Shown here: positions 18,001 through 24,000 of the stretch, one piece after another | Position numbering within the stretch: position 1 is the first letter of the stretch | How the letters are laid out: each line of letters opens with the position of its first letter | Source: Acaryochloris marina S15 | GTDB lineage: Bacteria > Cyanobacteriota > Cyanobacteriia > Thermosynechococcales > Thermosynechococcaceae | Assembly: GCF_018336915.1 (NCBI RefSeq) | Contig: NZ_CP064923.1 | Location: 2,760,001 to 2,792,000, forward strand | Direction: 5' to 3' | Length of the DNA stretch: 32,000 bases | Made by a program: the position numbers

Positions 18001-21000
18001 ATGAGAGTTTTTATGCTTCTATGCAGTCTAAAGGGAAAAGCTTTGCTTCATTTAGTAACAGATACCGATTATTTTTAATGTGATATTTCTTTGAAATGCC
18101 ACATAATTACTGTTTTTTGACCATAAAAGTGTAGTTTCTTATAGTAGTAGATAAAATCATGAAAGTCATCCATATACTGAATAAAATTGATCGATTTCTT
18201 CATCCTTCCAATATTTATGCTCTTCAACCTAATCATGATCTTCTTAGGAAGAATAGATCGCTTATAAAATCGAATGATATTGTTTTATTATCTTATCCAA
18301 GATCTGGAAATACTTGGTTAAGAAGACTCTTAGCAAACTCGATATTAGAGTCACAAAAAAACCTGCTCTCAAAACAATCAGATATTCCTTTTGAAACTGT
18401 AATTCCGTCTATTTATACCCAAAGCTTGGAACCAAGTTGTTTACATAACTATCAAGACATCAGCCAACGTATCATTAAGAGTCATGAACATAGAGATGCC
18501 AAAGGACATCGAACCATTTATTTACTGCGCAATCCAGCCGACACTTTAGTGTCTTGGTATCATTTTATTTCTGGATCTCCAAAACTCTTAAATCAATTTC
18601 CTTGGATACTAGATCTATCTATTGATGAGTTTTGCTTGAATGCTGTAGAAGGCTGGGTCAAGCACATCCAACAGACCCGCAAGTACAAAAATATCTTGCT
18701 AGTTGAATATGAAAACTTATTTCAATACCCAAGCCAGGTACTTGAAGAAATCTTGTCTTTTTGTGGTTTTTCCCAACACAACATTGATCTAGGTAAGGTA
18801 ATTGAAAATCAGTCTATCCGTAAACTTAAGCCTATCACTCAATCATTAGAATTAAGAAAAGGTGGAGTTGGACATGGCTATATGGAATTACAAGCAGATA
18901 CTGTGGCAGAACTACATAAATATCAGAAATTGATCGATACCAAATGGAGGCCTGCAATGAATTCTAGCCTTACTACTGTTCTTTGATAGCGAAAGGTTCT
19001 GAAGAGTCGATTGTACAAGAAGCTCGAAGTAGTTGTAGTATTCCTTCTCATGTTAAGGTATAGCTTTTAAGTTATAAAAGTTCTCGTTTATATCGTTCGA
19101 TAACTTCATTTCAATAAACTATTAGGCAAGGCTAGTGCATTGAGATTTAGAAGATTTTTGATCTCTGATGAAAAATTAATCAATTGATTACTGTCAAGAT
19201 AAAGGAATTTCAAATTAGAAAGCTGCCCTATTTCTGAAGAGACACTACACAGTCCATTGAACTCAAGGTCCAGCTATTCCAAATTAGCAAGATTGCCAAT
19301 TTCTGGAGGTAAGTGTTGGGCACTACTCTCTTAAGGAGTGATCAATTCGTAAGACGCATTGCCAACATAGTGTTCTAGCTTTTTAAAGCGAAAACTTCTC
19401 AAGTTTTTTCTGCATTTAGATTTGATATTCCTATCATGTCTTAACAAAATAGTGCCACAGATTTAATGTAGTTATTAAAAAAATTGATCATGATTATAGC
19501 TCCAGAAAGATAAATCATTTCTTCTAGATTTGAATTCAACTCCCTCAATCTATATCGGCCTTCAACTTCTAACTCTAGAATTCAGATAAAATTCATCAAA
19601 TATATTAGTGATCTAGAAGAAATACCCAAAGCTAATTAATAATAAGAGCAAAACTTAGGGTGCATTATGGCAATCTTGATCTACTTATCTAACCACCCCT
19701 GACAATTTCAACATGACTGATCAAGATTTATTAAAAGTGCCATCGTGTATCACAACATTTTTAGGTAATGGAGCTGCTCAAGACTGTTGCAGCTTTAAAC
19801 ACAACTACACACACAGAATGTGTTCACAATCACTTTAAAAATAGTCATATATCACTGAATACCTCTAAAACGAGTGTTCTAATTCAGATAGAAATCAGTT
19901 CACGCCACTCTTTAGTCATAATTCACTATTTATCTTCTAAAAAGAATTTATTGCATTAGATAGAAGCCTGAGAAGTATCAGACTTAACCCAATGAGTTAA
20001 CGATACTTGTCTTGAGTTTTACCCAGGATATCTGCACCAATCAGAAGGTTGCTTCAACAGGCAGCAAAGCACTCAATTGATCAATATTTCAAGGAGATTA
20101 GGTATGTCCGGGATATTCCAAGATAGTAAAGGCAAGCAATCCTCAGGAAGGCTGCAGACCACCGCATCGGTATTGGTGGGACTTGGCCTCGCCATTACCC
20201 TGGCTGCTGGAGAATGGCGAGGAAAAGCTTTTTCAGAAAACCTATATATCCTAACTGGGGCCTTGACGATTGGCGGCGCAGGCATGAAGGGCTTACAAAA
20301 ATTTTCAGAGCATGACAAACAGCCTCAATCCGCTGCACCACCCACAAAAGTAGCAGCCCCTCAAATCGTAGCTGTGCCATCTACCGAGGTGGTTTCAACT
20401 TCCTCTAAAGTCATCAAGATTCAAACCCCTGAAAAAGAATTAACCGCCGTTTTACAGGAGGGCTGGTAATGCCATTTATTACAGCGAAAAAGAATACTCT
20501 CCTAGCCCCCTTACCCAACCAACCCCACCTTCAGCCCTTAAATCGATTAGCAAAAGTGTATGAAGGAGGAATCCTAGGCATCATTAAAGTGTCTGCCGTA
20601 AATTCACAGTTGGCGGAGATTACCTTAGCAGGCCCCTATACCTGGCATGACCATTACCCAACGATTGAAACAGGTGTCACACGATATATCAATCCAGTAT
20701 CGTGGCATATTCCAGAGGATGCCTGGGAGAAACCAGAAGTCCCTGCCTTGCCCGCCCCCACTTCTAACCTCTCCCAACCAGAGACTCCAGGGATTCCCTT
20801 GCTACCACCAGAGGTCGCCCAACTCAACCACTTCTACGAAGGCTGTCAAAGGAAATTAGCGGATGGGCGAATTCAAGCTTATCCCGATCCCAGAGCCGGA
20901 AGTGGTGGGCTACCCGTAACGATTGGCTGGGGCAGTACCTATTACAAAGATGGTTCTGCCATCCAGATGGGGGACATCATTACCCAAACCGAAGCAGATG

Positions 21001-24000
21001 AATTATACGATTACATTTGCCACAAGGATTTTTGGATCAAGTTGCAATCGACCATCCCTTACTGGGACGACATGACCCATCAACAGCGGGCCGCTTTAAC
21101 CAGCTTTGCCTATAACAATGGCGCTGATTTTTACGGTTCCCCCAACCATAGAACCATCACACGCAACTTAAAAGAAAAAGATTGGCAGGCGGTCCCTGGC
21201 ACCCTGATGATGTACCGTAACCCCGGCGAAAATGTGGAAGTGGGGTTAGGTCGCCGCCGATATGCCGAAGCTAAAGTCTGGTGTGGTGAAGTGCCAACGA
21301 CCGCTTGTGCCGCCGCTGCCCAGGAAATTCAGACTGCCCAGGACTGCGAACCCATTGAACAGCGGCTCAAAATCAACCCACCGGCGGTGGTAGGTTTTGA
21401 ATCTATGGTGACCATCTCAACACCAATCCAACCTTCTGGTCCTCGGCAGCTCCATGTTATAGCAGGGATGAAAGGCCCAAAGTCTCATCCAGATGCCCAT
21501 GGCTTTAAACCCGGAGACTATCATCTAGTGGCCAATGATGCCGTAGGGAAGATCAAGTGCTATGACTATGACGGTACTTTGATGTGGGAATTATCATGTC
21601 TCTGTCGTGGTCAGTTTGAGGACAATTACTTTGGCAAACATGGAGATACCCCGGCAGGTCTCTACAAATGTGGGCAAATCTATCGGGACTATGAGCAAGC
21701 GGGTGACCATGCTGGCTATACCCGCGACCGCATGTCTTATGGCTGGTTTAGTTTTGATCTGGTTGAACTAGAAAGCCAAGAAGCTAATCTGGGTCGGGCA
21801 GGGATTATGATCCATGGCGGCGGCAGTGGTTGCGGATGGCCAGGTGCATGGAAACCGAAGCAACCTATGTTCGCAACCCTAGGCTGTATCAGAATGTATA
21901 ACCAAGATCTACGCGACAAAGTCGTGCCCTTATACGATCAGCCTGGTGCCACCCTTTTTGTCAGTGTCTATCAGTAGCTACTCTCTTAGAAGAGACAAAG
22001 ATGACAGAGTGAGAAATACTGTAGCCGATCGCTAGATTAAAACAGTGTTCCAAGAAGCCAAGCTTTGCATCTTATTTCAGCCAGGATTGAACTTTTAGCG
22101 GCAATACCACCGGACATTGAGCAGGATGAACTCAGCTTGATAATGACGCCATTTAGATAGGTTAGCAGTTTTCATGGGTGGGAGAGAAAAGAAACACAGC
22201 TTCTCAGATTACCACTGGTTCTCAGCGCAGACACAATTTTTCGACACAACTAGGTAATTCATGAAAGGTAGACGGAGTTTAGCTTATGGCACGCAATCAG
22301 CCTATCAGACTGGTGTAGGCTCCTAAATTTTGGCTATTCAGGACTGACAGATTCAATGTTTGGCTGCCATCGTCTTTCACAACGGTGCAGAGGCGATAAA
22401 AATACTCTACACCACCAGGATTTTATAGTTTGGAGACTTTTCCTAAGCATGAGCAACGTATTATTGGTCCCGATACATGCAGATGCCTTACATCTCAAAT
22501 TTGGAACCGGTGTTGCAGAAACAATGACAGCGCCTAATCGCCTCCCCTATTTCAGTGGACAACGAGATGTTAATCCTGATATTGCTAATCTCAGTGAGTC
22601 TATTGTTTCTCAACCTTTTCAAAATAAGAACCTTTTTCTAAAAGCGGGCATTCATCTACATTGGTCTTTGCCTGATGCCCTGACTCAAGAAATTGAGAAT
22701 GGCAACTTTCCAGCAGTTCCCAATCGTTGGTTAGTCACTCGGCGACTGGATAAAGATACAGAACATTGGGTGATTGAAAGTGATTATCTTTATCCACCCG
22801 ATGCAGGTTTTCAGGAGGATAGTGTCATGTATCCTTATGCTGACTCCGAAAACTCCTATCTTCCAGGCTTTCGGTATCTTGGCCGAACGCTAACATTAGA
22901 GGAATGGAAGCAACAGCAACCAGCAAGTAGCGCCGATGCCAAGCACCTAGAGCGCTTGACGGCTATCGGGTATGGTGAACCCACGTTTGCGGCTTTTTAT
23001 CCTAATTGTCGAAGTGTATTTGGCTTTCACGATCCTAAATATGCCGATGCTACAGCGCTGCCCGAGGGTCTGCAATACGATGTGATTGGCTGGTACAGCA
23101 ACGCTGAGCAGAACTATCTGAGCGAATTTATCCAAGATTTTAAGAACAACTTCAAGACGGACTTTCCAGATGCAGAATTGACGCTCGAAGCCTTGATGAA
23201 CAGTATCCAAGAGGAATTCAAGTGGAAATTTGAGTGGGGGGATGAGAGCTTGAATCCAACAAGTGAAGCCCCTCAGGTTGTCTGTTATTCACGGTTAACT
23301 TTCCAACCGCCTAAAGACTACTCAGGGCAACCTCCCTTAGAGACCGCTAATATTCGTCTGGCTGTTGCAAATACAGGCACAGAGGCCTTATCAGCTTATC
23401 TGGCTGAGACTATCGATCAATCTCAGAAAGCGGCGATTGAGGAACAATTGGAAGCGCTACAGTTTACCGACGACTTAGAAAGTCAACAGTTAGATATTGG
23501 CCCTAAGTGTCAGGAGATTCGTCATGAGGCTGGGTTCAATGCGGTCACGGGCCACTTTCTGTGGAAAGTTCGTATAGAAACACAAACACAGCCATCCTCT
23601 TCAGATCCGTCTTCTTCAGAAAGCACATCTTCTCAGACAAAATTTGACATCCCATCCGATATTGCCGCCGGGCTCAATGCTCTCAACCAGCAACAGCAGC
23701 TCTATGATGCTGCATTGGCAGAATTGGGCGCTAGACGTAGACAACTTTTCTCTGACTGGTACAAGTATATGATTTGTGCCTATCCCCCAGAAGATAGCCA
23801 GGATGACTATCCTGATATTGATCAAGTCAAGTACTATATCCAACAACGAGGACTCGAACCGCTATTAGAAAAGGCCCAGGCCACTGGAAAATTAGATTTA
23901 GATAATCCAGACAGCTTGCCTCTGACATCAGACTCTGAGATTTCCCTGGCCTCCGAACTCGCGGGGCTAATCAACAATGTAGTGCGGACGATTGATACCC

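Follow-up and report, generated by a model that had tools for sequence, protein, structure and literature searches.

A holin-like gene coupled to a predicted GH24 and YkuD-fold wall enzyme in Acaryochloris marina S15: a putative lysis-type cassette related to cyanophage lysins

Type 10 secretion systems, as described for Serratia ChiWXYZ, for Salmonella TtsA acting with the L,D-transpeptidase YcbB and for Yersinia Tc-toxin release (PMC9527704, PMC10847048), are one of the closest described counterparts of the locus reported here, and a set of cyanophage lysins is another. In cyanophage S-CRM01 two adjacent overlapping genes encode a GH24 protein annotated as 'endolysin' (g113) and a YkuD-like protein (g112), and in cyanophage S-CBS4 the annotated endolysin gp063 joins a glucosaminidase and this YkuD-like domain in one protein. 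Among the catalytic-domain classes catalogued for endolysins YkuD is a rare one (PMC5017753; PhaLP, PMC8310338), and there is precedent for hydrolases with the YkuD fold in Tae5/Tlde1, Csd6/Pgp2 and DpaA (bioRxiv 10.1101/2020.02.18.954545; PMC12729407). Here we analysed a stretch of 32,000 nt from Acaryochloris marina S15 (contig NZ_CP064923.1, positions 2,760,001 to 2,792,000; hereafter the window, whose own numbering is used throughout), in which an open reading frame for a small membrane protein (ORF1) runs directly into one for an enzyme (ORF2) carrying a GH24 lysozyme domain and a divergent YkuD-fold domain.

On balance we favour the view that this pair is a host-resident, two-gene cassette of lysis type derived from cyanophage lysin modules, whose enzyme would be a bifunctional muramidase and L,D-peptidase. 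By sequence and modelled structure, it appears to be a cassette domesticated in cyanobacterial chromosomes, combining an unclassified holin-like family, a putative new adaptor domain and a YkuD-like lysin domain. The lysins of S-CBS4 (gp063) and S-CRM01 (g113/g112) share with it the YkuD-like family (48–56% identity) and the domain order, and S-CRM01 also the GH24 subfamily, whereas neither has the SH3-like N-terminal domain of ORF2 or an adjoining ORF1-family gene, and both reside in phage genomes. With Type 10 systems it has in common a chromosomal holin-like gene next to a signal-less muralytic enzyme, the absence of phage genes around them and the general theme of a muramidase linked with L,D-transpeptidase chemistry. 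Unlike these systems, however, it has no conserved adjoining cargo gene and no spanin, its muramidase and L,D domain form a single protein, the latter not being a separate housekeeping enzyme, and its holin-like protein is unrelated to known families. What is new in the chromosomal form is a strict two-gene module, made of a tailed protein with two transmembrane segments and an enzyme with an added SH3-like N-terminal domain (hereafter the N-domain).

All features of the pair lie on the + strand. ORF1 (20104–20469) encodes a holin-like membrane protein of 121 amino acids (aa) and two transmembrane segments that belongs to an unclassified family. Its start is the ATG at 20104, which is kept in orthologues, unlike a TTG further 5' at 20077, and is preceded at a distance of 7 nt by a Shine-Dalgarno sequence (AAGGAG, 20091–20096) that is unchanged in orthologues. 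ORF2 (20469–21977) encodes a protein of 502 aa and 55 kDa with the GH24 and YkuD-fold domains. At the coupling junction (20456–20471), a second Shine-Dalgarno sequence (AGGAGGG, 20456–20462) is located within the region encoding the ORF1 tail and is followed by TAATG, in which the ORF1 stop codon TAA (20467–20469) and the ORF2 start codon ATG (20469–20471) have one base in common. An ORF1 homologue ends at the enzyme start, or no more than about 15 bases from it, at 32 of 34 genome loci; the two others come without upstream DNA. This recurrence of both the pair and its stop/start junction indicates that the pairing is not due to chance. The window enzyme shares 88% identity with its counterpart in Acaryochloris marina MBIC11017, and ORF1 shares 99% with a protein of NIES-2412. 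Neither a signal peptide nor a signal-anchor-release segment was found in ORF2 by hydropathy (peak 19-residue value of 1.28) or in its modelled N-terminus, which folds into a beta-domain in the AlphaFold2 model.

This model (predicted local distance difference test score, pLDDT, of 78.8) resolves ORF2 into five parts, namely the N-domain, a linker, a lysozyme, a second linker and an alpha/beta C-terminal domain (hereafter the C-domain). The N-domain (residues 1–89, 20469–20735) is predicted to be a small SH3-like beta-barrel (AlphaFold2 pLDDT of 85 and predicted template modelling score of 0.74 when modelled separately); it has no match in Pfam, matches SH3 folds weakly (E ~0.1) and has as its top viral fold match a 'peptidoglycan-binding protein' of cyanophage S-CBWM1 (E=6e-3). 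A Pro-rich disordered linker (residues 90–113, 20736–20807; pLDDT <50 at residues 90–108), whose length differs between homologues, leads into a helical GH24 lysozyme domain of the T4/P22 type (residues 114–302, 20808–21374). Pfam Phage_lysozyme (PF00959) matched residues 134–267 with 59.5 bits against a cut-off of 22.3 (E=5e-16), PHROG endolysin families and PDB sequences also matched, and Foldseek searches of this domain against PDB structures returned 9kbq (TM-target 0.88, E=1e-7), 6et6 and P22 lysozyme (2anv), with E values of 1e-7 to 1e-5. The catalytic residues suggested by conservation are Glu124 (20838–20840), Asp140 (20886–20888) and Thr151 (20919–20921); Glu124 (in YEGC) and Asp140 (in PDP) are unchanged in 27 of 27 homologues, and Thr151 (in TIGWG) is found in at least 90%. 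In T4 lysozyme the catalytic triad is formed by E11, D20 and T26, the equivalents of this Glu-Asp-Thr set. A match to the BgtA gene-transfer-agent endolysin in NCBIfam (43.8 bits against a cut-off of 315) was taken as generic GH24 similarity. A further linker of low pLDDT (residues 303–335, 21375–21473) separates the lysozyme from the C-domain.

The C-domain (residues 336–502, which with the stop codon span 21474–21977) was assigned to a divergent YkuD fold by Foldseek and conservation. Pfam YkuD (PF03734) matched residues 390–482 with 22.3 bits, just under the gathering cut-off of 23.4, and homologues at 48–56% identity exceeded this cut-off (S-CRM01 g112 with 37.9, S-CBS4 gp063 with 28.0 and another with 24.7 bits). 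Foldseek matched the modelled domain to 1y7m (E=4e-4), 8da2, Pgp2 (6xj7), LdtMt5 (4zfq) and DpaA (8ikr), all with a probability of 1.00. The putative catalytic pair consists of His449 (21813–21815) and Cys473 (21885–21887), the latter within TLGCIRMYN, and a family-specific insertion, GGGSGCGWPGAW, is located between them. None of the residues His449, Cys473, Arg475 and Asn478 varies among the relatives compared (93 of 93), an invariance that points to catalysis. In the same 93 relatives Gly-Cys is preceded by Leu in 54, by His in 30 and by Phe in 5, and the surplus length between His and Cys corresponds to the invariant insertion GGG[ST]xCGWPGAW. When a sequence profile of the C-domain was compared with PDB sequences no YkuD entry was retrieved, the fold comparison alone having found YkuD, and the domain is thus too divergent for sequence-level assignment to a characterized enzyme. 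The family comprises 303 clusters among 1.84 billion representative proteins and, since it is this small and finds no solved YkuD protein by sequence, it forms a sharply separate branch of the YkuD fold.

An earlier sequence-only reading of this DNA had pointed out the TAATG overlap with its implied translational coupling, the lysozyme-type core, the YkuD signature with its cysteine codon at 21885–21887 and the missing export signal of the enzyme. All of these observations held up in the searches described above, although the YkuD domain of the window protein itself stays just below the Pfam cut-off.

Compared with canonical L,D-transpeptidases (Bacillus subtilis YkuD, LdtMt2, Escherichia coli YcbB/LdtD), the C-domain has the same fold (1y7m) and a GCIR(M)xN stretch around the cysteine, but the ORF2 domain scores under the Pfam cut-off, has Leu in place of the second His and has a His-Cys spacing outside HXX14-17[S/T]HGCh; moreover, ORF2 has neither a signal peptide nor a lipobox and occurs in a lysin context and not in one of wall synthesis. 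With the YkuD-fold hydrolases (the L,D-carboxypeptidases Tae5/Tlde1 and Csd6/Pgp2 and the amidase DpaA/LdtF) it shares the fold and the Cys/His pair, and its model matches Pgp2 and DpaA, whereas no sequence similarity is detectable by profiles and the His-Cys spacing of 23 residues and the invariant GWPGAW are unique to the C-domain family. Many members of this family stand alone as proteins of 150–250 aa. One such case is a YkuD-like protein of about 245 aa in Synechococcus sp. CS-1330 (locus L045, 5776–6510; 46 similar loci occur among L040–L089), which has a short helical N-terminal region and no glycosidase. This gene lies near a 343-aa ORF that looks capsid-like by eye, and such proteins may belong to elements resembling prophages or gene-transfer agents.

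Relatives of the enzyme were abundant in cyanophages. By tblastn against GenBank phages, matches were obtained in 75 Synechococcus phage records, and in IMG/VR 372 contigs encode relatives. Among the best 80 IMG/VR loci, from which the architectures were counted, 43 encode a glucosaminidase followed by the C-domain and 23 a GH24 domain followed by the C-domain, in a single ORF each (66 of 80 fused behind a glycosidase). A glycosidase followed by a YkuD-like domain is thus a recurrent layout of cyanophage lysins. NCBI names for cyanobacterial homologues are 'L,D-transpeptidase family protein' or 'glycoside hydrolase family protein' and, taken together with the phage relatives and the catalogued endolysin class, they make the fusion neither unique nor unannotated. 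The earlier statement that this is not the usual endolysin layout was therefore too strong. A literature search found no paper characterizing a GH24-YkuD fusion or the biochemistry of the related cyanophage lysins. The phage versions of the enzyme lack the N-domain, their start corresponding to the part that follows it, and no ORF1 homologue lies near them; none was found beside the lysin genes of S-CRM01 or S-CBS4, and 50,697 GenBank phage records contained no tblastn match to the N-domain or to a short relative of ORF1.

The fusion partner of this GH24 subfamily varies. In cyanomyovirus ACG-2014f gp211 it is a papain-like Peptidase_C39_2, in relative P0036 it is Peptidase_M15_3, and in P0061 and P0070 it is PG_binding_1 in place of the YkuD-like domain. 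Relative P0017 contains GH24, YkuD and a separate PG_binding_1 in one protein, which suggests that its YkuD domain is not simply a wall-binding module. The gp211 gene of ACG-2014f (L170, 2464–3681), annotated as 'hypothetical protein' and encoding a Peptidase_C39_2/C70-like domain plus a GH24 domain of 53% identity, probably represents an unannotated bifunctional lysin.

The full-length enzyme, including the N-domain, was detected in about 30 species genomes from Acaryochloris and from the Cyanobium / Synechococcus 5.2 / Vulcanococcus / Aphanothece group, and the ORF1 tail and the enzyme N-domain always occur together. Ratios of non-synonymous to synonymous substitution (dN/dS) of 0.03–0.12 over both genes and the three enzyme domains show that purifying selection acts on all of them, the range for ORF1 alone being 0.07–0.20. 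The GH24 domain gave 0.03–0.05, and the inter-domain linker the highest value in the enzyme (~0.3). The module is thus retained by selection in the chromosomes of Acaryochloris and of Cyanobium/Synechococcus. In Acaryochloris genomes only the DNA corresponding to 19757–22005 of the window is held in common and it occupies a different site in each genome, often among toxin-antitoxin, STAND-NTPase and transposase genes; no convincing terminal repeats or integrase accounting for this relocation were found. In the three Synechococcus/Cyanobium-type loci with examined flanks the position of the module is syntenic, with katG upstream in two of the three and sulfate-transporter and selenium-metabolism genes downstream in all three. 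On an Acaryochloris-like contig (L003), the module sits between two short C-terminal fragments of ilvD and a full-length ilvD (8421–8949 and 11629–13314), an arrangement that looks like an insertion with partial duplication of the target.

A sister cassette was found at two metagenomic loci (L191 and L192), where a tailed ORF1 member is followed, 3–4 bp on, by a protein made of the N-domain, a PF11860 muramidase and Peptidase_M15_3. These cassettes indicate that the conserved core is the tailed membrane protein with the N-domain, that the catalytic part is an exchangeable unit of a glycan cutter plus a peptide cutter and, given the M15_3 domain, that the YkuD-like domain of the present enzyme occupies a peptidase slot.

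The ORF1 family consists of 131 clusters, labelled 'hypothetical protein' or without a name save for one odd JGI label (P0142). Family alignments define the motif GxFxDxxGxxSSGRL at the N-terminus of ORF1, and hydropathy predicts two transmembrane segments, TM1 (residues 19–36, 20158–20211) and TM2 (residues 46–61, 20239–20286), followed by KGLQKFSE and a 60-aa tail (20287–20466) rich in Pro, Ala, Val and Thr. With Lys/Arg before TM1 and after TM2 (the basic juxtamembrane KGLQKFSE), the protein is predicted to be N-in/C-in, both ends being cytoplasmic. The features by which holins are recognized, that is a small membrane protein with at least one transmembrane segment, a charged C-terminal region and an adjoining endolysin-type gene, are all present. 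ORF1 resembles in particular the class II holins (two transmembrane segments, N-in/C-in, such as S21 68) in its small size, two predicted segments, positive flanks and coupled position 5' of a muralytic gene, but differs from them in having no sequence relationship to the holins of Pfam, PHROGs or NCBIfam and in its extra tail of 60–100 aa, and hole formation is only predicted. In the alignment the family core of about 75 aa reads GFLxEDxGxxSSMRLM, TM1, a loop and TM2, followed by GAFAPKALQKFAE. Short relatives of 71–107 aa are present on phage-like contigs, and chromosomal members carry an extra tail of 40–100 aa rich in Pro, Ala, Thr and Val. An IMG/VR search led by the Acaryochloris ORF1 gave zero matches; re-seeded with short members of the family, it recovered 15 viral loci.

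Under the interpretation of a domesticated lysis-type cassette, ORF1 and the signal-less enzyme would be produced together via translational coupling. ORF1 would open or permeabilize the inner membrane in the manner of a holin, and the enzyme would most likely reach the peptidoglycan only then, an ORF1-dependent export being proposed because the enzyme has no means of passing the inner membrane by itself. The tail of ORF1, Pro-rich and predicted to be cytoplasmic, may dock to the SH3-like N-domain, and the two may work together as an adaptor that places or gates the enzyme, as suggested by their strict co-occurrence. Once at the wall, the GH24 domain would cut glycan strands, as expected from its catalytic triad, its fold and established GH24 chemistry, and Cys473 and His449 of the YkuD-fold domain would attack the L-centre carbonyl of meso-diaminopimelate in peptide stems. 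We infer that the C-domain is an L,D-endopeptidase or L,D-carboxypeptidase and not a builder of crosslinks because of its use in phage lysins, its replacement by M15 or C39 peptidases in related proteins, the additional PG_binding_1 of P0017 and the known YkuD-fold hydrolases. The sequence-only reading had offered such a hydrolytic role as its alternative, and it is this alternative that the phage-lysin use and the peptidase-slot evidence would favour. Possible host uses of the cassette are regulated autolysis, abortive infection or other defence, and secretion or local wall opening.

A number of results weigh against this interpretation. ORF1 has no match in Pfam, PHROG, NCBIfam or PADLOC and thus belongs to no described holin family, its TM2 is weakly hydrophobic, and scans of the flanks at 14 of the 15 viral loci with ORF1 relatives found no recognizable lysin adjoining; as the viral neighbours are not wall hydrolases, the phage context does not decide for or against ORF1 being a holin. 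We looked for a spanin-like or other small gene 3' of the enzyme gene and found none, which means that a diderm cell need not be lysed completely; activation could result in less than full lysis, leaving room for non-lytic uses, although this is not evidence for them. With regard to the C-domain, the spacing of 23 residues between His and Cys and the TLGC sequence depart from the canonical motif HXX14-17[S/T]HGCh (quoted in bioRxiv 10.1101/2020.02.18.954545), and the structural matches are a mixture of transpeptidases (1y7m, 8da2 and LdtMt5), the L,D-carboxypeptidase Pgp2 and the amidase DpaA. A YkuD active site by itself cannot tell a hydrolase from a transpeptidase, and the presence of PG_binding_1 in the C-terminal slot of some relatives means that the C-domain may have a binding role.

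A broader proposal, which we regard as doubtful, extends the cassette to a 'gate plus adaptor' scheme. Here the tailed protein with two transmembrane segments would recognize the N-domain and control the export of interchangeable cargo (GH24 plus YkuD-like, or PF11860 plus M15), the domesticated module would be the founding example, used for programmed events, such as lysis of an altruistic or abortive-infection kind or a regulated opening of the wall, under the control of its 340-nt leader, and the C-domain would represent a new class of L,D-hydrolase specific to cyanobacteria and their phages.

Other explanations assign a different task to one of the two proteins. ORF1 may be a membrane tether or inhibitor, similar to an antiholin or immunity protein, that holds the enzyme via the N-domain until it is set free by a further signal, for instance infection by a phage or damage to the membrane. 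The strict co-occurrence of tail and N-domain, the position of ORF1 outside known holin families, the lack of lysin linkage of its phage relatives, the weak TM2 and the location of Acaryochloris copies amid toxin-antitoxin, STAND-NTPase and transposase genes are all consistent with such a role, yet we consider it unlikely, as small size, two transmembrane segments, a basic juxtamembrane stretch (KGLQKFSE) and coupling to a signal-less muralytic enzyme are the classic signature of a holin and no alternative export route is encoded nearby. Alternatively the C-domain may serve in targeting or anchoring, by recognizing stems or by forming a covalent acyl-enzyme tether, with GH24 doing all the cutting. 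PG_binding_1 is the second domain of P0061 and P0070, many endolysins combine a single catalytic domain with a binding domain, and covalent intermediates with stems arise naturally in L,D-transpeptidases (PMC12729407). This explanation is nevertheless quite improbable given the four residues that are invariant in 93 of 93 relatives, the coexistence of YkuD and PG_binding_1 in P0017, the many C-domain members that are stand-alone proteins and the true peptidase in the equivalent slot of the sister cassette. That the pair is merely a decaying prophage remnant with no host function is extremely unlikely. Its domains are of phage type, its site varies between Acaryochloris genomes and the L003 copy has insertion-like ilvD fragments at its flanks, but in every genome the two frames are uninterrupted and subject to strong purifying selection, the three examined Synechococcus/Cyanobium-type loci keep the module in a syntenic position, the 340-nt leader is conserved and no flank contains phage genes.

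The sequence-only reading cited TtsA-dependent toxin export and proposed that the fusion could make and then cut a patch of LD crosslinks, opening the wall locally and without lysis. As a device resembling Type 10 systems, the YkuD domain would produce a local patch of 3-3 (LD) crosslinks and GH24 would cut this patch specifically, so that large proteins such as the ExoY-like toxin encoded downstream could leave. The precedent is real, as secretion is indeed served by holin/endolysin pairs that lack phage genes, and TtsA does need the LD-crosslinks made by YcbB (PMC9527704). Also in line with it are the absence of a spanin gene, a catalytic Cys and His that would suit a transpeptidase equally well and the presence in the window, downstream and on the same strand, of genes for proteins of 1377, 550 and 659 aa, the last being ExoY/EF-like. 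These genes, however, were found in none of about 35 other module loci among the 89 loci searched by tblastn, four other Acaryochloris genomes included, their linkage to the module being judged from the module side. The flanks of the module differ in every Acaryochloris genome. The enzyme gene is separated from that of the 1377-aa protein by a gap of 380 bp, and the picocyanobacterial copies have katG on one side and transporter genes on the other, a toxin gene being absent from their vicinity. Thus the linkage of holin and endolysin to a secreted cargo that is typical of Type 10 systems was not seen. Furthermore, the same pair of domains is a phage lysin layout, and the sister cassette has in the place of YkuD an M15 peptidase that is unable to build crosslinks. 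We therefore consider this explanation very unlikely. Overall, the earlier observation was confirmed and its interpretation partly supported, the export by crosslinking and then cutting being the part that the genomic context does not support.

A lysis-type cassette would be of interest because lysis in cyanobacteria and by their phages is poorly understood and its holins are largely unidentified, and ORF1 represents a candidate holin family for both. If the C-domain is a hydrolase, it would constitute a new enzymatic class for endolysin biology and cyanobacterial wall turnover. A conserved module of this type, present in Acaryochloris and in picocyanobacteria of ecological importance, could be the basis of programmed lysis, of defence against phages or of the release of proteins. 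Such enzymes are also of practical interest for lysing cyanobacterial production strains in a controlled way and for the control of blooms.

Upstream of ORF1, a non-coding leader or promoter region of about 340 nt (19757–20103, +) is the sole upstream DNA common to other Acaryochloris genomes, and sequence comparison revealed in it an imperfect direct repeat of about 52 nt (19842–19893 and 19913–19965, +). Rfam, promoter and terminator scans of the leader gave nothing above background, and RNAalifold paired AAUCACU (~19828–19835) with the ORF1 Shine-Dalgarno sequence, with no covariation support. The pair has no PADLOC defence-system match in ORF1 or ORF2, and none of the neighbouring window proteins matched a PHROG. 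Phage genes were likewise absent from every module flank examined, and the embedding among phage structural, replication or integration genes that marks a prophage cassette was not observed.

The three downstream genes are all on the + strand. The 1377-aa protein (22356, or 22449, to 26489) and the 550-aa protein (26968–28620) have no match in Pfam, PDB, PHROG, NCBIfam or PADLOC; the former belongs to a large family, independent of the module and spread over several phyla, with more than 1260 relatives over cyanobacteria, Kouleothrix and Blastocatellia and no functional name from any source. Both genes may form an operon with the third, which encodes a 659-aa protein of the ExoY/EF/CyaA nucleotidyl-cyclase type (28860–30839; Anthrax_toxA, E=7e-17; ExoY 5xnw, E=2e-10). 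The cyclase toxin domain of this protein, unusual for a free-living cyanobacterium, is N-terminal and the remainder is matchless.

The flanks of the window contain ndhF/ndhD/chpX-type CO2-uptake (NDH-1) genes, a sulfotransferase, a TPR-protease and proteins with pentapeptide repeats and TPR repeats. The protease (14138–16219, −) is a 693-aa trypsin-like protein with TPR repeats whose protease part matches RT-Protease_XI and LmuA of PADLOC (E 1e-11 to 1e-13) and which may be related to defence. A 5'-truncated Mutator-family transposase (1566–2552, −), IS-like InsA zinc-ribbon ORFs (5506–6209, +) and truncated DUF4347 and OprB fragments (2884–3339 and 3830–4159) were also detected, this area being rich in debris of mobile elements.

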